This document shows, in pieces, positions 16,086 through 23,282 of a DNA stretch of 64,000 bases. The position numbers were made by a program, and so were the translations under genes. Numbering within the stretch: the first letter of the stretch is position 1; every line of letters begins with the position of its first letter. The notes under the pieces were generated by a model. That model was not told the DNA's origin. It ran no database searches and saw only the letters and a program-made list of their open reading frames with translations. The DNA is from Escherichia phage RB32, in the sequence record NC_008515.1. The stretch is one strand, 5' to 3'.

Positions 16086-17050
16086 TGTATTCTTTAGAGG
16101 AATTTAATAATCAAGCAATAAACGCAGATTTCCAACGTAATAATATGTTTAGCTGCGTTTTTGCAACAACTCCATCAACTAAAAGCTCTTCGTTGATAAG
16201 TTCAATTAGCAACTTTTCTTATAATAACTTGGGCCTAAATTCAGATTGGTTAGGATTAACCCAAGGTGATATTAATCAGGGAATTACCACGCTAATTACA
16301 GCTGGCACACAAAAACTGATAAGAAAATCAGGGGTTAGTAAATATCTTATTGGTGCCATGAGTCAACGTACAGTTCAAAGTTTATTAGGCTCATTTACAG
16401 TTGGTACATATTTAATTGACTTCTTTAACATGGCATATAACTCATCTGGATTGATGATATATTCCGTAAAAATGCCAGAGAATAGATTATCCTATGAAAC
16501 TGACTGGAACTATAATTCTCCTAATATTCGTATAACTGGGAGAGAATTAGACCCTTTGGTTATTTCATTTAGAATGGATTCAGAAGCTTGTAACTATCGT
16601 GCAATGCAAGACTGGGTTAACTCTGTTCAAGACCCAGTAACTGGATTACGTGCTTTGCCACAAGATGTCGAGGCAGATATTCAGGTTAATCTTCATTCTC
16701 GTAATGGATTGCCTCATACTGCGGTGATGTTCACCGGATGCATTCCAGTGTCAGTGAGCGCTCCTGAGTTATCATATGATGGAGATAACCAAATAACTAC
16801 ATTTGATGTTACTTTTGCGTATAGAGTCATGCAGGCTGGAGCAGTTGATAGACAAGCTGCGCTTGAATGGCTTGAATCTGCTGCTATAAATGGTATTCAA
16901 AGCGTTCTCGGAAATAGTGGAGGTGTTACTGGACTATCTAATTCGCTTTCACGACTCAGTAGATTAGGGGGAACTGCAGGAAGCATTTCAAACATTAATA
17001 CTATGACAGGAATTGTCAATTCGCAAAGTAAAATATTAGGAGCAATATAA
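16085..17050 (+). CDS. 54: Baseplate tail-tube initiator gp54
   Basis: 321 aa, T4 gp54 position and approximate length. Confidence 0.92.
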   Translation: MYSLEEFNNQAINADFQRNNMFSCVFATTPSTKSSSLISSISNFSYNNLGLNSDWLGLTQGDINQGITTLITAGTQKLIRKSGVSKYLIGAMSQRTVQSLLGSFTVGTYLIDFFNMAYNSSGLMIYSVKMPENRLSYETDWNYNSPNIRITGRELDPLVISFRMDSEACNYRAMQDWVNSVQDPVTGLRALPQDVEADIQVNLHSRNGLPHTAVMFTGCIPVSVSAPELSYDGDNQITTFDVTFAYRVMQAGAVDRQAALEWLESAAINGIQSVLGNSGGVTGLSNSLSRLSRLGGTAGSISNINTMTGIVNSQSKILGAI

Positions 17051-17054
17051 CAAT

Positions 17055-17072
17055 GGGGACCTTTCGGTCCCC
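17055..17072. terminator. Stem-loop GGGGACC-tttc-GGTCCCC after gene 54
   Basis: Perfect 7-bp hairpin followed by atatttttattt on the plus strand; also downstream of the minus-strand 96-aa ORF. Confidence 0.55.
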
Positions 17073-17078
17073 ATATTT

Positions 17079-17369
17079 TTATTTACGGAATGAAATGAAA
17101 GCAGCAACTGAAGCAACTAAACTGTCTTCAATATAAACTTCAATTTTTACCGGAGCTTCTGACTCGAATTTACCTGTTACTACACCCTGAAAAATACTTT
17201 CAGTCTGTTCTGGCTTTGAAAAATTTTCAGAAGGAAAAATTCCGAACTTTTTATCTGTTCCAAAAATTTTAATAAATTCATCGTAAACTGCTTCATTAAA
17301 AGCATTATCAGCAGGAATAACGCCTTCAACTACAAGTTCTTGACCTAAAAAGCGTAAAGAAGATTTCAT
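17079..17369 (-). CDS. Hypothetical protein, 96 aa (position of T4 alt.-3)
   Basis: ORF preceded by its own early promoter, leader and SD (the 54-bp element at 17377..17430). Confidence 0.6.
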   Translation of the reverse strand: MKSSLRFLGQELVVEGVIPADNAFNEAVYDEFIKIFGTDKKFGIFPSENFSKPEQTESIFQGVVTGKFESEAPVKIEVYIEDSLVASVAAFISFRK

Positions 17370-17376
17370 TTTGTGT

Positions 17377-17430
17377 TCCTCATGTTATGTCAGTAAGACT
17401 ACTATAACACAACACGAGGGACTTGTAAAC
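17377..17430 (-). repeat. 54-bp element, copy 1: early promoter (GTTTAC-N18-TATAGT) + leader + GAGGA SD
   Basis: Identical base-for-base to 32743..32796; sits between the Alt-paralogue stop and the 96-aa ORF start. Confidence 0.7.
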
Positions 17431-19487
17431 TACATTTTGAACTTTTTAGACATTCCGTTGATGTTAACCAAAGAAGCTAAGATTTGAGAAACTTCATTTT
17501 CCTCTTCTTTTGATTCTTCTACAAGGAATTGATTAAATCCAGTCATTGGACGAACTTCACCAGTTTCCATTAGATGGTCGCCATCATATACTGATTCCTC
17601 TAATTGTTCAGAAGGAGGAACGATTGTACCTTCGATTAGATACTTGTTATAAGCAGTTTCTTTCATAAAGTACGTACTTACTTTATTAATCTTCAGTAAA
17701 ATTCCACGCGGTAGAATAACTTCAGCTTCTGATGGAAATCCTGATAAATGACCTGGAACGATAACTTTGATTCGCTCAGCTCCTTTAATTACCATACCCA
17801 CGCTAGTTTCAGCATCTTCATTGGCATATGTAGAATGACTACCCGTATGCATTAAATCTTCTGCATCAACGGAACCTTCTCCTTCACCAGAAAATACTGC
17901 GCCGGAATCATCTAGAGCCATATAGTTTTTACCATGCTCACCGAAGATATTTGGTTTAAGCGATGTGGATACGAAGTTCTTGAAATAGAACATTTTATTT
18001 TCAATGTTATGACGCAAAGTTTTAAAGGTAACTTCTTGTCCACGATAAAGCGTAGTTCCTGGAGGAAGAACCGAACCTTTAGCGAATGCAGAATCCAACG
18101 TCTCGATGTGCTTAATGGCACGTTCCATATATTCTTCACGGGTAGAATCTGGTTTACCCAAAAGGAACGAGTTCATTTCAACATATGAATCTGCACAATA
18201 ATCTTCAATTACATCAGATTCAGCTTGAGTTAATCCTTTTGGAGTTACTTCGGTGCTTGCGTATTCATATGCCTGAGCGGCAGATTCATTAATCAATTTA
18301 TAAATGCCATTCATTACAAATTGAATAATAGCTGTCTTTTCATCTGGCGTAGCTTTAGAACCTTTAACCAAATCATTGATAATTTTCTTAATAACATCAA
18401 AGCTATTAGAAATATTAATATCAGCAAGATCGCTTAAAATTTTATCAGTTTTATAATCAAAGAATTCTTTATTCTTTAAATATTCTTGAGAACCTTGATA
18501 TGTTATATCGCTCTGCAACTTGATGGATGGATCACGTAAACGTGCATGGGCTAATGCAATATGATTTCGGAAGTTTTCTAGTTCATAATCGCTAGATTTA
18601 AAACGAGAAGCACTCCTCATACCACCGATAGCTCCTTTGCTGAAGTTTGAACCAATCTGAATAACGCCAGAGTTCATTGGTCCTTCTGCTTTATATACCG
18701 GAACTTTAGATTCAAACTCTTGATATTTCTTAGCAGCGAAGCTATCACCCTGAAGTGAAGCATCAACAGTAGAATATTGAGCTTGTGCTGCTAATCGACG
18801 ACTAATTTTAGTTTTCTGAATAACAGCTTGGTCCGTGCGCTTATCATTTTCTAAAGCAATAGAAGCAGCAACAGCGACAGCTTTAGGAACAGCATTACCT
18901 GTTTTAACGTCTACATAAACATCACCAACCTTTGATTCAACTTTTGTGAATAACTCAGTTGAAATAGGAGGTACACCTGGAATGTCTTCTAAATTGGCAT
19001 TTTTACGGTAAACCATAATATATGCATACTTTTTATCATAGTCCCAGATTTCCTTTAAAAGAACATATCGACCTGCTCCTTTAGTACGTACTAAACGGTC
19101 AGCAATAACTTGCATTTGACGAGCAGCGCCATTTGTTTTACTTTTTAGTACGCGGAATAGGCATGCGTCAATTTTATACTGCTTCATTGTTTGAAGAGCA
19201 GTATCAAAAACAGCATTAATGACACCAATTGGATTTCCACCCAAGTTTCTAAGCTTAACCAGCGATAATTTCTCGTTGACACCTATCATTACGATATGCA
19301 TCATTTTATCGCCTGGCTTAACGTTTTTATTCGTATCACCACCAGAGGTGTATGTACAAAATCTAAATCCAGGAAGCACGCTTTCTTCGCCGGCTTGAAT
19401 AGCAAAAATTTGTGGTATTTTATGCTTAGGATTTAAGTTAACAACCGGCGCCGAAGCGCCGTCAAATAATTCTGTAATAAGTTCCAT
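17430..19487 (-). CDS. Alt-family ADP-ribosyltransferase, second paralogue (685 aa)
   Basis: N-terminus MELITELFD... parallels Alt; C-terminal half carries LYRGQ, FVSTSL and SEAEV (R / STS / E-x-E ART-type motifs); start 3 nt after the alt stop with SD AAGGA. Confidence 0.85.
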   Translation of the reverse strand: MELITELFDGASAPVVNLNPKHKIPQIFAIQAGEESVLPGFRFCTYTSGGDTNKNVKPGDKMMHIVMIGVNEKLSLVKLRNLGGNPIGVINAVFDTALQTMKQYKIDACLFRVLKSKTNGAARQMQVIADRLVRTKGAGRYVLLKEIWDYDKKYAYIMVYRKNANLEDIPGVPPISTELFTKVESKVGDVYVDVKTGNAVPKAVAVAASIALENDKRTDQAVIQKTKISRRLAAQAQYSTVDASLQGDSFAAKKYQEFESKVPVYKAEGPMNSGVIQIGSNFSKGAIGGMRSASRFKSSDYELENFRNHIALAHARLRDPSIKLQSDITYQGSQEYLKNKEFFDYKTDKILSDLADINISNSFDVIKKIINDLVKGSKATPDEKTAIIQFVMNGIYKLINESAAQAYEYASTEVTPKGLTQAESDVIEDYCADSYVEMNSFLLGKPDSTREEYMERAIKHIETLDSAFAKGSVLPPGTTLYRGQEVTFKTLRHNIENKMFYFKNFVSTSLKPNIFGEHGKNYMALDDSGAVFSGEGEGSVDAEDLMHTGSHSTYANEDAETSVGMVIKGAERIKVIVPGHLSGFPSEAEVILPRGILLKINKVSTYFMKETAYNKYLIEGTIVPPSEQLEESVYDGDHLMETGEVRPMTGFNQFLVEESKEEENEVSQILASLVNINGMSKKFKM

Positions 19488-19490
19488 GAT

Positions 19491-21584
19491 TTATCCTTGA
19501 ACGAACTTGTAAGGCATGTTTGTAATATCTATGCAAGACGCAATAATTCCAAGAGATGATTCTACTTTCTGTTTAACATTTGATGAAACAAATGATGCAA
19601 AGTCAACTCTGTCTTCTACTTCAATATCACCTGTCATTGCAACTACTTCGCCGGTTTCCATTAGACAGTCTCCGTCATAAATTACCGATTCGGTGAGTTC
19701 TTCTGTGGTCATAACTTCAGCTTGAATGAGTTTTGTATTATTAGATGTTGTTCCGTCATTATTAGAAGCATCAGTTATTTTATTAACTTTGACCATCAAC
19801 CCGCGCGGTAGAATAACTTCAGCTTCTGTTGCTATTCCGAGACTTCCTGGATATACAACATTAACTTTATGAGCTCCATCAATTGCCCATCCTATTTGAA
19901 CTTTAACGTATTCAGGATTTTCTTTATACGCTCTTATTTCGTTTGGATTAATAGTTATTCCTTCTTCATTTTTATCAACTGTTAATTCGTTACGAGCTTC
20001 TGGTTCTAAAAGACCAATACCAGCATGTGTAATTCCAAAACGTCCAAAAATGATAGGAGTTAAAGAAGTAGATACAAAATTTCTGAAATAGAACACTTTA
20101 TTTTTAACTAGTGCTTCGTATATAGGAGCAGTCATACTTTGAGCACGATAAACTGTAATGCCTTCCGGTATGCGGTCACCATTTTCAAAAGCTGAATCTA
20201 AATTATTTATAGCAGATTCAATTTCTTTTTCACTCATTACATCATATCGTTCTGGATTGTAACGACCTAAAAGAAGATTATTAATGTCTGTATATCCTGA
20301 ACCACAATACTCTCTAATACCGCGCTTTTGTGATGGAGTATATTTAGAACCATCACGGGCAATAGTAATATCAATCATTGGACCAGCACCAATTCCAGAA
20401 AAGCTATAAATCATTCGTTTGAGGAATTTAGTTTTTGCTGCATTCCAGGCATTTTTAGTTATTTCTCCCCAGACTTCATCTGGTTGCCCTTTACGAGTTT
20501 TATTATGTTTATCAAGCCAATTATCTTTATATTCTTCAAAGAATTTATTAACAGCTGCTGCGTATTTCTCTAAACATTTTATTGAAGTAGTTGGCTCATT
20601 TTTTATCGCGTTAAAAATTACATCTTTAATTTTTTCGGAAACTTCATCAACCTCACTTTTTGAAAAGAATTTATAGTCATAGTGAAGTTCATTCGCAGTT
20701 CCTTCGGCAATAATTTTTGCTGCCTTAGTTTTAGAAGCTAATGAATTAATTCCAAGCTTCATTTCTTCTGCTTCGGGAATTAAAGGAGCGGTAGCAGGTT
20801 TATTGAAATTAGCTGCGGTAGATTCATACTTCTGGAATAATTCACTTTCAAACCTAGAAGATTCCAATGATTGACTTTGCGCAATTGCTCTACGGGAAAT
20901 TTTAACTTTAACGATTACAGCTTGGTCAGAACGTTTATCATTTTCTTGCGCAATAGATGCTGCAATTGCCTCATTTTTAGTTACTTGGGCTCCAGTATCT
21001 TTATTGATATAAACATCACCGACCTTCGATTCAACTTTAGTAAAGAGCTCGGTACTAATTTCCGGAACTCCTGGAATGTCTTCTAGTGATACATTTTTGC
21101 GATGTATAAGAATATATGCATACTTTTTATCATAATCCCAGAGTTCCTTAAGAAGGACGTATCTACCACCTGAACGACTACGGATAAGTCTATCAGCAAT
21201 AACTTGAATTTGTCGAGCTTGGCCAGCAGTTTTAGACTTAAGAATACGAAGCATACAAGCATCAATTTTATACTGACGCATCGTTTGCATTGCAACAGTA
21301 AAAACTGAATTGATATAATTAATTGGGCTTGGACCAAGACCTTTTAATTTAGCAATTGAACCTTTAGCAGTTAATGTAAAAGGAACAATATGCATCATTT
21401 TATCGCCCATTTTTAAATCGCGATTAGTATCACCTCCAGATGTATAGGTACATAAACGAAAGCCTGGTTGTTCAATTGCATCATCAACATGAACTGAAAA
21501 AATTTGCGGTATTTTCTTCTTTGGATTTAAGTTTGTAATCGGAAGAGTAGTATCTTCGTCAAATAATTCTGTAATGAGTTCCAT
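19491..21584 (-). CDS. alt: Alt ADP-ribosyltransferase (packaged internal head protein)
   Basis: 697 aa from the second Met (MELITELFDEDTTLPITNLNPKKK... as T4 Alt); VYRAQ, FVSTSL, TEAEV motifs. Confidence 0.92.
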   Translation of the reverse strand: MELITELFDEDTTLPITNLNPKKKIPQIFSVHVDDAIEQPGFRLCTYTSGGDTNRDLKMGDKMMHIVPFTLTAKGSIAKLKGLGPSPINYINSVFTVAMQTMRQYKIDACMLRILKSKTAGQARQIQVIADRLIRSRSGGRYVLLKELWDYDKKYAYILIHRKNVSLEDIPGVPEISTELFTKVESKVGDVYINKDTGAQVTKNEAIAASIAQENDKRSDQAVIVKVKISRRAIAQSQSLESSRFESELFQKYESTAANFNKPATAPLIPEAEEMKLGINSLASKTKAAKIIAEGTANELHYDYKFFSKSEVDEVSEKIKDVIFNAIKNEPTTSIKCLEKYAAAVNKFFEEYKDNWLDKHNKTRKGQPDEVWGEITKNAWNAAKTKFLKRMIYSFSGIGAGPMIDITIARDGSKYTPSQKRGIREYCGSGYTDINNLLLGRYNPERYDVMSEKEIESAINNLDSAFENGDRIPEGITVYRAQSMTAPIYEALVKNKVFYFRNFVSTSLTPIIFGRFGITHAGIGLLEPEARNELTVDKNEEGITINPNEIRAYKENPEYVKVQIGWAIDGAHKVNVVYPGSLGIATEAEVILPRGLMVKVNKITDASNNDGTTSNNTKLIQAEVMTTEELTESVIYDGDCLMETGEVVAMTGDIEVEDRVDFASFVSSNVKQKVESSLGIIASCIDITNMPYKFVQG

Positions 21585-21607
21585 CATATCCTCTCTAGTG
21601 TTTATTC

Positions 21608-21615
21608 TATTTATA
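21608..21615 (-). promoter_or_regulatory. Late promoter TATAAATA (minus strand) upstream of alt
   Basis: Plus-strand TATTTATA about 24 nt upstream of the alt ATG. Confidence 0.55.
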
Positions 21616-21620
21616 AAATT

Positions 21621-21637
21621 AAAGGCCCGAAGGCCTT
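21621..21637 (-). terminator. Stem-loop AAAGGCC-UUCG-GGCCUUU after the 62-aa ORF
   Basis: Perfect hairpin on the minus transcript followed by A/U-rich sequence. Confidence 0.5.
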
Positions 21638-21825
21638 TAATAATCTATTGGTAAGAGAGTACGATATATTTCAAACTTTGGACCTTTTTCATAGGCATCA
21701 AATGTTTCTGTGAATTTATTATAAGCATATGCATCTATAAATTCAATCATGATTTGTGATACAGAAGTAGAAACATCTCCACCTTCTTTTTGAGCCACGA
21801 CAATTGTTTCTAAGTAAGCTTTCAT
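21637..21825 (-). CDS. Hypothetical protein, 62 aa
   Basis: ORF whose ATG overlaps the gene 30 stop (ATGA). Confidence 0.5.
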   Translation of the reverse strand: MKAYLETIVVAQKEGGDVSTSVSQIMIEFIDAYAYNKFTETFDAYEKGPKFEIYRTLLPIDY

Positions 21826-23282
21826 AGACCAGTTACCTCATGAAAATCACCAAATACATCTTCGAATGTATTAGCTTTAGTTTTATCTTCACGTAAACGA
21901 ATCGCAATCGGAAGAAATAATTTAACGTAATCAGTGCGGCCATCAGATTTTAACCAACCGTTGCATTCGCACTCTAGAATTTTTCCAATATAATAATTTT
22001 GGTTTTCCATGATGCGAGTACGGTCAAGTTCATGTGATTTTACACCGGCTTTATCTTTTAAGCCTGAACCAGCATTTACTTTAATTTTTCCACACTCTGA
22101 TTCAAGAATAAATCCACCTGCTTTAGTAGGGTCTTTACGGTGAGGATAAATTCCTACAATTTTTAAATCAACATCAATTACTTCTTTAAATTTATAGAGA
22201 TTTTTTGAACGAGCATTTTCCCACAATCCATCGGTATTTTTGAGAATAATACCTTCAAGACCTTGGTCAATATACTTTTTGTAAATAACCTTAGCTTCAT
22301 CTAGGTTATTTACTACCTGGTTTTCAATTAAAATTACTTTATCATAGCCTGATGTCATTTGTTCTAGTTTAGAAAAACGTACATCATATTTTAAACGAAA
22401 TGCTGGAAGACCGTATACTTCTACCAACGGTACATAATCCCAGACCTGAAACTTCATGCATTGAGCTTCTTTTTCTGAAATAGTTCCTTTTAAAGATTTA
22501 TTAGCGATTCCATTAGAAGCAGTACGTGATTCAGCTACTTCTGTGAAGTCTTTAGCTTTGCTAATTTCAGGAGTGTCAAAAAGAAAATCTAGGCCTTCTG
22601 ATTCCTTTTTAACTTGCTCATGGTATACCAATTCGCCATCAATTAACACACCTTCTGGATGAATCTGGCGGGCTTCAGCAGTCATTTTGATTAACTCTTC
22701 CTTAAGAAGATCTAATCCTAGGTATTCATTACCAGCTCGTGATAAAAGACGAACATCATCTAATTCATCACCTCTGACTTCAGCAAAGCACCGAGCTCCA
22801 TCAGCTTTTAATTGGGCAAAGGCTGGAAATTTGATATTCTTATTAATGCCTTTTTCATCATAAGAACTTGCCAGCATTTGAGGTTGTTCAGGAATTAAAC
22901 CTGGCCAAACTTTGTTTGCAATAGATACTGATGCACCGCATTCAAGGTCTCGCATCATCACCCGACGCAAAACTTCAACATCATCTTTTTTACCGTCAGT
23001 AATATATCCAGTTAATTCCTCAATTGCCGCATTTCCAGTCAATTTCCGAGTAGCTAACGTGAATTCAATGAAGTCAAGCATATCGGTAAGAGTCAACATT
23101 CCAAAACTCTGGGTAGCAATACCAGGTTTAGGCCATTTCTTGATATAATACTGTAACCCACGAGAATAAGTCAGACGATATACTCGTTTAAGCAATTCAT
23201 TATCTTTATTCTTTTCAAGAATTGCTTGCTTCTGCTTAGTTGAACCAATAGATGCTATTTCGTTCAGAATTTTAAGAATCAT
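21822..23282 (-). CDS. 30: ATP-dependent DNA ligase gp30
   Basis: 486 aa, MILKILNEIASIGSTKQKQAILEKNKDNELLKRVY..., adenylation motif KADGAR; matches T4 DNA ligase. Confidence 0.95.
   Translation of the reverse strand: MILKILNEIASIGSTKQKQAILEKNKDNELLKRVYRLTYSRGLQYYIKKWPKPGIATQSFGMLTLTDMLDFIEFTLATRKLTGNAAIEELTGYITDGKKDDVEVLRRVMMRDLECGASVSIANKVWPGLIPEQPQMLASSYDEKGINKNIKFPAFAQLKADGARCFAEVRGDELDDVRLLSRAGNEYLGLDLLKEELIKMTAEARQIHPEGVLIDGELVYHEQVKKESEGLDFLFDTPEISKAKDFTEVAESRTASNGIANKSLKGTISEKEAQCMKFQVWDYVPLVEVYGLPAFRLKYDVRFSKLEQMTSGYDKVILIENQVVNNLDEAKVIYKKYIDQGLEGIILKNTDGLWENARSKNLYKFKEVIDVDLKIVGIYPHRKDPTKAGGFILESECGKIKVNAGSGLKDKAGVKSHELDRTRIMENQNYYIGKILECECNGWLKSDGRTDYVKLFLPIAIRLREDKTKANTFEDVFGDFHEVTGL

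Follow-up and report, generated by a model that had tools for sequence, protein, structure and literature searches.

The Alt protein of bacteriophage T4 (gpAlt, 682 amino acids (aa)) is an NAD+:arginine mono-ADP-ribosyltransferase that is packaged in the phage head as a prohead-core protein, in about 40 copies, and injected into the host by ejection with the DNA. Almost all knowledge of injected phage ADP-ribosyltransferases (ARTs) comes from T4, which is a deletion variant at the alt locus. Here we describe this locus in a stretch of 64,000 nucleotides (nt) from Escherichia phage RB32 (NC_008515.1; the whole stretch is called the window hereafter), in which two adjacent genes of the minus strand, gene A (19491-21584) and gene B (17430-19487), encode Alt-like proteins of 697 and 685 aa, respectively. 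Gene A is alt, in the allele found in RB33, T2 and T6, and gene B encodes a second full-length Alt-like ART. We argue, with a probability of roughly 0.7, that gene B specifies a functional second Alt-type enzyme, acting by the mechanism proposed below, and is not a decaying duplicate. The pair is no new kind of system; with its second enzyme, which has conserved catalytic and processing sites, it is of modest interest.

Paralogues of alt have been described before. Nolan et al. (2006) listed as such both T4 alt.-1/alt.-2 and a full-length alt duplicate in Aeromonas phage 44RR (PMC1524935); the latter, ORF187c/188c, is an adjacent duplication like A and B, with 54% similarity between its two members (PMC1524935). 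A paper of 2026 reported two Alt-like paralogues with 43.29% identity in phage 6phi13/SHFML-11 and gave the same reading of functional divergence (PMC13600099). This Tequatrovirus pair is the same gene pair as A and B, with no difference: SHFML-11 carries gene B at 97.7% nucleotide identity, and the B protein is present in SHFML-26 at 99.4% amino-acid identity. The Aeromonas and Acinetobacter duplications correspond to more distant Alt types, 29-33% identical to B, and tblastn detected two to three Alt-like places per genome in several lineages of the Straboviridae.

Gene B itself is widespread. At thresholds of at least 80% coverage and at least 94% nucleotide identity it was found in 400 of the 496 matching phage records, and a tblastn search at a minimum of 90% amino-acid identity also retrieved B from 400 records. 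The carriers include T2, T6, RB3, RB14, RB27 and RB51, as well as field isolates from Escherichia, Shigella, Yersinia, Salmonella and Citrobacter. Intact B prevails in Tequatrovirus and is a common T-even arrangement, and the possibility that B is unique to one phage or absent from the classic phages is ruled out by its occurrence in T2, T6, many RB phages and around 400 records in all. The novelty implied for the second gene by an earlier note on this DNA, which had been made from the letters of the sequence, hence does not hold: a second Alt-like ART is already annotated, in about 400 records including T2 and T6, and paralogues are in the literature. A and B are a known gene pair.

From 17000 to 22000, the window is 100% identical to the record of phage RB33 (KM607001.1). 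The genes on the minus strand are arranged in the order DNA ligase (gene 30), alt.1, gene A, gene B and alt.-3, and genes 54 and 48 come next on the plus strand. The T4 alt gene occupies the same locus, between DNA ligase/alt.1 and alt.-3/gene 54, with the same upstream hairpin and TATAAATA motif. In the RB33 record gene A is annotated as alt and gene B as a hypothetical protein with the note 'alt.-2'; RefSeq gives both the name 'Alt-like RNA polymerase ADP-ribosyltransferase', and they appear as alt_1 and alt_2 in other annotations. Gene A comprises an Alt N-terminal domain, a helical linker, an ART domain of the R-S-ExE type and a C-terminal propeptide, and this domain order is common to A, B and T4 Alt. 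The start of gene A consists of two tandem in-frame ATG codons (ATGATG, 21582-21587, minus strand), as does that of T4 alt. The length of 697 aa counts from the second ATG and becomes 698 aa if counted from the ATG at 21587; the sequence GAGG (21590-21593) leaves a gap of 5 nt to the second ATG but of only 2 nt to the first, which makes the start at MELITE more likely. Residue numbers in the literature (e.g. Alt E577) apparently count from the first ATG.

Overall, the A and B proteins are 41% identical (BLASTP, E = 3e-158), with strong differences between regions (limits given in B numbering). In the N-terminal domain (1-238) A and B are 68% identical; in the same region A matches T4 Alt at 237 of 238 positions and B is 67% identical to it. 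The linker (239-410) falls to 15% between A and B, 32% between A and T4 Alt and 23% between B and T4 Alt. The corresponding values are 35%, 66% and 40% in the ART domain (411-625) and 43%, 94% and 43% in the C-terminal tail (626-685). The insert between the STS and ExE motifs is long and unrelated in sequence between A and B. The earlier note had described two adjacent minus-strand open reading frames (ORFs) of 697 and 685 aa, sharing the start MELITELFD and about 230 residues and diverging strongly in the C-terminal ART domain, and both the ORF coordinates and these identities agree with it. Gene A is the positional orthologue of T4 Alt, although another allele (697 versus 682 aa), and gene B is a paralogue, 47% identical to T4 Alt overall. 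At least two A allele types are in circulation: a 697-aa type, present in RB33, T2, T6, RB51, WL-3 and sutha, and a T4 type of 682-686 aa, present in T4, PYPS2T and SH7, the last two of which carry it alongside an intact B. The alt gene itself is thus mosaic between phages (window 19491-21584 compared with L002 4351-6399 of T4), with near-identical ends and a diverged linker and ART domain.

Both proteins were matched by the Pfam family PF03496 (ADPrib_exo_Tox), with scores of 128.7 bits for A (2e-37) and 72.0 bits for B against a cutoff of 23.4, and over their full length by phrog_802, 'Alt-like RNA polymerase ADP-ribosyltransferase' (A residues 1-696 at 3e-272, B residues 1-685 at 1e-256). 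The precomputed Pfam domains on B orthologues are PF26846 (Tevenvirinae_ADPRT) and PF03496; NCBIfam returned no family for A or B. The motifs of gene A are YRAQ (R480), STS (505-507) and EAE (587-589), and those of gene B are YRGQ (R482), STS (507-509) and EAE (587-589). On the minus strand of the window, the codon of Arg482, the catalytic Arg of the R-S-E triad of B, which aligns with R478 of T4 Alt, is at 18042..18044; the alignment places the Ser507-Thr508-Ser509 codons at 17961..17969 and the Glu587-Ala588-Glu589 codons, corresponding to the ExE of the ADP-ribosylating turn-turn (ARTT) loop, at 17721..17729. R482, S507, S509, E587 and E589 do not vary among 19 aligned, diverse Alt-like proteins. 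T508 is conserved as Thr in 17 of these 19 and unchanged in seven B orthologues, all seven of which also retain the complete R / S-T-S / E-x-E signature.

The R, S and ExE motifs of A and B could be aligned with those of T4 Alt, ModA and ModB. The comparison with these three proteins, which the earlier note had proposed as a check, puts the catalytic Arg and Glu of B at aligned positions, and the motifs that it had called intact in both genes (VYRAQ/LYRGQ, FVSTSL and (T/S)EAEVILPRG) are all present. The variants E577A of T4 Alt and E165A of ModA are catalytically dead (PMC11404850). ModA E165 is the second Glu of EQE, and the motif of T4 Alt, with residues counted from MELITE, is E574-M-E576; since an upstream ATG exists in T4 alt, E577 is the second Glu if numbering begins there, and the inactivating position would then align with E589 in both A and B. 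The alignments support A and B as Alt-family R-S-ExE ADP-ribosyltransferases with intact catalytic residues, and B is predicted to be active. The T4 proteins ModA and ModB (about 200 aa, expressed early) are alignable at R-S-ExE, as YRG/WRG, S-x-S/T and EQE. They are single-domain, unpackaged proteins encoded at another locus and have neither the N-terminal nor the C-terminal Alt module; beyond the motifs their alignment is poor.

An AlphaFold2 model of B, obtained with the 19-sequence alignment, has a mean predicted local distance difference test score (pLDDT) of 72.6, with about 80-90 in the ART domain and a confident 84.6 in the N-terminal module. When this model was compared with the PDB by Foldseek, the best matches were Vis toxin, C3bot, CDTa, iota-like toxin and VIP2 (E from 1.6e-7 to 5e-5, probability 1.00), with target TM-scores of 0.56-0.66 for the single-domain toxins and sequence identities of 13-20%. 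The structure prediction, also suggested by the earlier note, therefore points to a C3/VIP2-type ART fold for the modelled C-terminal domain. In sequence searches against solved structures, B had no match at E <= 0.01 and A had weak matches only, to CDTa and iota toxin; the PDB copy searched held no Alt structure among its entries. The C3-like and binary-toxin ARTs (Clostridium botulinum C3, C. difficile CDTa, C. perfringens iota Ia, Bacillus cereus VIP2 and Vibrio Vis) share with A and B the fold and the R / S-T-S / E-x-E motifs. The phage proteins differ from these toxins by the long insert between STS and ExE, and they are fused to phage-specific N- and C-terminal head-packaging modules rather than to toxin delivery domains.

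Selection on B was measured in seven phages (RB33, RB51, WL-3, SH7, PYPS2T, T2 and T6), in all of which the ORF is 685 aa long. The ratio of nonsynonymous to synonymous substitution rates (dN/dS) ranges from 0.028 to 0.076 over all 21 pairs, at dS values up to 0.27. The pooled pN/pS ratio for the same pairs is 0.054 in the ART region and 0.023 in the N-terminal domain. Gene B is under strong purifying selection. Taken together, the invariant catalytic residues, the modelled fold and the dN/dS values indicate that B is a bona fide R-S-ExE ART under strong constraint and not a decaying copy.

The T4 locus shows what became of gene B in that lineage. The T4 record agrees with the statement in the earlier note that T4 has one full-length alt followed by the small alt.-1 and alt.-2, and the alt.-1/alt.-2 region (L002 3962-4347, from T4 AF158101.6) could be aligned to gene B of the window. 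The note had added that an intact second gene in T4 would remove the novelty; T4 does have the same gene, but as a deleted remnant and not in an intact form. The first ~345 nt are retained, and nucleotide identity over the initial 347 nt is 94.5%. A 1-nt deletion after codon 54 has split the B frame in two, so that alt.-1 covers B residues 1-54 and alt.-2 covers B residues 62 to about 115. A deletion of 1,699 nt then joins two 9-bp direct repeats, CTAAAAAGT, and has removed the linker and the ART domain; in the T4 locus alignment the upstream copy of CTAAAAAGT is located at 19140..19148 of the window and the downstream copy, at the other deletion end, at 17441..17449 (both on the minus strand). 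The PHROG families of alt.-1 and alt.-2 also fit B far better than A. According to the T4 GenBank note, alt.-1/alt.-2 duplicate the first part of alt; in place of such a partial 5' duplication, the alignment and the junction at the 9-bp repeats show the remnant of a full-length B. A 70-nt probe spanning the T4 junction was nearly complete in 90 records, natural isolates among them. The T4-type deletion is thus a lineage allele and no laboratory accident: the T4 lineage lost B by deletion, and the two-gene state is common in T-even phages.

Other rearrangements were observed at the same locus. In Escherichia phage sutha (PV245934.1; L009 5001-7204), the 3' end of A runs into the final 38 codons of B, and what is left of B is an ORF of 38 aa with the annotation 'Alt-like' protein, a loss independent of that in T4. 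Two metagenomic Logan contigs (L011 5001-7055 and L012 5001-7061, from SRR24155011 and SRR19633722) contain a single chimeric alt gene with the N-terminus of A and the body of B. The crossovers lie near nt 540 in L011 and near nt 660 in L012, and past them both sequences are B-like, at 92-100% in almost every 60-nt window, so that only a B-type catalytic domain is left. On L011, which is 65 kb long, ligase, alt.1, alt, alt.-3 and gene 54 follow one another, and no further alt gene is present. An assembly artefact is a possible source of these chimeras, made less likely by the longest exact match between A and B in the window, which is 25 nt, and by the difference between the two crossovers. 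All four combinations occur, i.e. each A allele type with or without an intact B, and the locus behaves as a modular cassette, in which conserved ends for packaging enclose catalytic cores that can be exchanged or dispensed with.

The prohead protease gp21 trims T4 Alt by six N-terminal residues (ITE-6) and 63 C-terminal residues (LTE-619), as determined by mass spectrometry (PMC5694885). The first nine residues, including the ITE-6 site, are the same in T4 Alt, A and B, and all three have L-x-E at the C-terminal boundary. In B, residues 1-6 (MELITE; 19470..19487, minus strand), identical to those of T4 Alt, form a predicted N-terminal propeptide ending in the gp21 motif I-T-E, and Leu629-Glu630-Glu631 (17595..17603, minus strand), aligned with LTE-619 of T4 Alt, is the predicted C-terminal gp21 motif (L-x-E). 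The corresponding motifs of A are ITE (4-6) and an LTE ending at residue 632. The P1 glutamates of B, E6 and E631, are invariant in all 19 homologues, and the B model is disordered from residue 629 onward. The predicted mature products have masses of 69.1 kDa for B (residues 7-631) and 70.1 kDa for A. The kept Alt N-terminal domain and the two gp21 motifs make head packaging of B plausible.

The two genes are preceded by a G+C-rich hairpin located after alt.1 (21618..21641, minus strand; RNA fold of -14.5 kcal/mol, z = -5.3, with none of 200 shuffled sequences as stable), which is probably a terminator or an insulator against upstream early and middle transcription. Directly abutting it on the downstream side is TATAAATA (21608..21615, minus strand), the consensus motif of T4 late promoters, 23 nt upstream of the gene A ATG at 21584. 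The hairpin, TATAAATA and the ATGATG start are all conserved upstream of T4 alt. The stop codon of gene A (TAA, 19491-19493) and the ATG of gene B (19485-19487) are separated by 3 nt, and a Shine-Dalgarno-like AAGGA (19494..19498, minus strand) for gene B is situated within the last codons of A, 6 nt before the B ATG. This junction is also kept in T4, upstream of alt.-1. The earlier note had placed a late promoter 24 nt before the first gene, 1 nt from our measurement, and its account of the junction, with B starting 3 nt after the A stop and AAGGA in the coding end of A, corresponds to what we see. The arrangement supports a view of A and B as tightly spaced genes behind a putative late promoter of the T4 type. 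Between A, B and alt.-3 the minus strand showed no terminator-like site, and a bidirectional terminator-like hairpin between alt.-3 and gene 54 (17053..17074) is the likely point at which a late transcript covering A, B and alt.-3 would stop. A second exact TATAAATA is present within gene A (20204-20211, minus strand), about 720 nt upstream of gene B; it could be a chance occurrence or an internal late promoter for a transcript of B only.

Concerning substrates, the proteins differ at the position that precedes the first Glu of ExE by three residues: B (Phe584) and its closer relatives have Phe there, A has Ile and T4 Alt has Pro. In an alignment of A with CDTa, this position of the ARTT loop (Ile in A) pairs with the Tyr of 'PGYAGEYE' in CDTa. 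We take the position of Phe584 to be that of the turn-1 aromatic residue of the ARTT loop in C3-like and iota-like toxins, which contributes to substrate recognition. These differences are suggestive of a partly different set of host protein targets for B compared with A. The idea of a distinct target set, raised in the earlier note, is accordingly plausible only: the ART domain of B is 35-40% identical to those of the Alt types and differs from them at the presumed substrate-recognition position.

From these features we infer late timing, translational coupling, packaging, processing, ejection, enzymatic activity and a difference in targets, in the following scheme, which is the best supported of the explanations considered. 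A and B would be transcribed late from the TATAAATA promoter upstream of A and translated from close cistrons with separate ribosome-binding sites. The shared Alt N-terminal module would bring both proteins into the scaffolding core of the prohead, where gp21 would trim them after I-T-E6 and after the L-x-E near residue 631, yielding a mature B of ~69 kDa. Both would be kept in the head and ejected with the DNA, and in the new host cell they would mono-ADP-ribosylate arginines of host proteins with NAD+, ahead of any phage gene expression. B probably modifies a partly different set of host proteins compared with A, the orthologue of T4 Alt.

Several observations weigh against this scheme or parts of it. 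TATAAATA is not over-represented in the whole window (13 observed against 8.7 ± 3.2 expected) and, being short, the motif alone is weak evidence; with its count at chance level, its position and its conservation in T4 therefore carry the promoter argument, and not its occurrence. Seven L/I-x-E motifs are present in B, all of them short, so that cleavage at the two proposed sites is deduced only from the alignment with T4 Alt. One RNA polymerase alpha subunit is among the known targets of T4 Alt, and since the difference in targets is deduced from divergence alone, the targets of A and B could overlap fully, for instance at RNA polymerase alpha. B is dispensable in at least some settings, being absent from the T4 lineage (90 records) and lost in sutha. 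Finally, the literature searched contained only descriptive mentions of a second Alt, and no proteomics, activity or mutant data on B were found there (Koch & Rüger 1994 and Koch et al. 1995 were outside its scope).

A functional second enzyme leaves room for the narrower proposal that B is a second injected effector with host targets of its own, for example one neutralising a host toxin or a defence protein. T4 Alt reportedly neutralises the toxin MazF. We regard this proposal as a tentative one, with the odds rather against it. If it is true, an entire enzyme of the T-even 'first-minute' toolkit for host takeover has been hidden by the model phage T4, since its lineage lost B, and some differences between T2 or T6 and T4 in host range or defence sensitivity could trace to B. 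Most T-even phages, the classic T2 and T6 among them, probably bring two different Alt-type enzymes into the host cell.

The best-surviving alternative to a second enzyme with its own role is that B is a redundant back-up, active and packaged but with the same targets as Alt, kept for dosage or as insurance against blocking host factors, its divergence reflecting arms-race drift. Losses at the locus fit this idea on both sides, B having disappeared from the T4 lineage and sutha, and the body of A from the two metagenomic chimeras, which have a B-type ART only. The two A allele forms, with ART domains 66% identical in a near-identical frame, show that the family tolerates large divergence, and T4 Alt is non-essential (PMC9026906). 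However, both A and B are kept under strong purifying selection in ~400 genomes, which full redundancy does not predict, and the ARTT turn-1 position and the long STS-to-ExE insert differ sharply between the two proteins. We consider a purely redundant B to be unlikely.

It is far less probable still that B is mainly a structural or internal protein of the head core, filling volume or making scaffold contacts, with a catalysis that is irrelevant or lost. Alt has been described both as an enzyme and as part of the core (PMC11404850), and alt- mutants package more DNA, so internal proteins affect head contents (PMC3012670); the N-terminal domain is also the most conserved part of B, as its pN/pS ratio indicates. 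A structural role does not account for the catalytic residues, which are all invariant, for the strong constraint on the ART domain, or for the fold, which in the model is that of a complete C3/VIP2-type ART; moreover, heads assemble without Alt and, in T4, without B. Decay towards a pseudogene, which the T4 alt.-1/alt.-2 hint at and which the frameshifted, deleted remnant in T4 and 89 other records illustrates, has next to no chance of applying to gene B of the window, for which it is ruled out by the intact ORFs in seven of seven genomes and a dN/dS of 0.03-0.08, with full-length B in ~400 records.

Two small genes flank the pair. Upstream, alt.1 (62 aa; 21637-21825, minus strand) corresponds to the Pfam family PF24647 'Phage blade protein' (7.5e-29); it shares its first 4 nt with the end of the ligase gene, and the hairpin described above (21618-21641) comes after it. 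Just downstream of gene B is alt.-3 (96 aa, Pfam DUF5498; 17079-17369, minus strand), preceded by a sigma-70/T4-early-type promoter-like sequence (17401-17429, minus strand; TTTACA-17 nt-TATAGT, with an upstream TG). With an early-type promoter of its own, alt.-3 probably has an early expression that does not depend on the late alt genes. T4 mutants with a C-terminal extension of Alt.-3 escape the CmdTAC defence system (PMC11618068).

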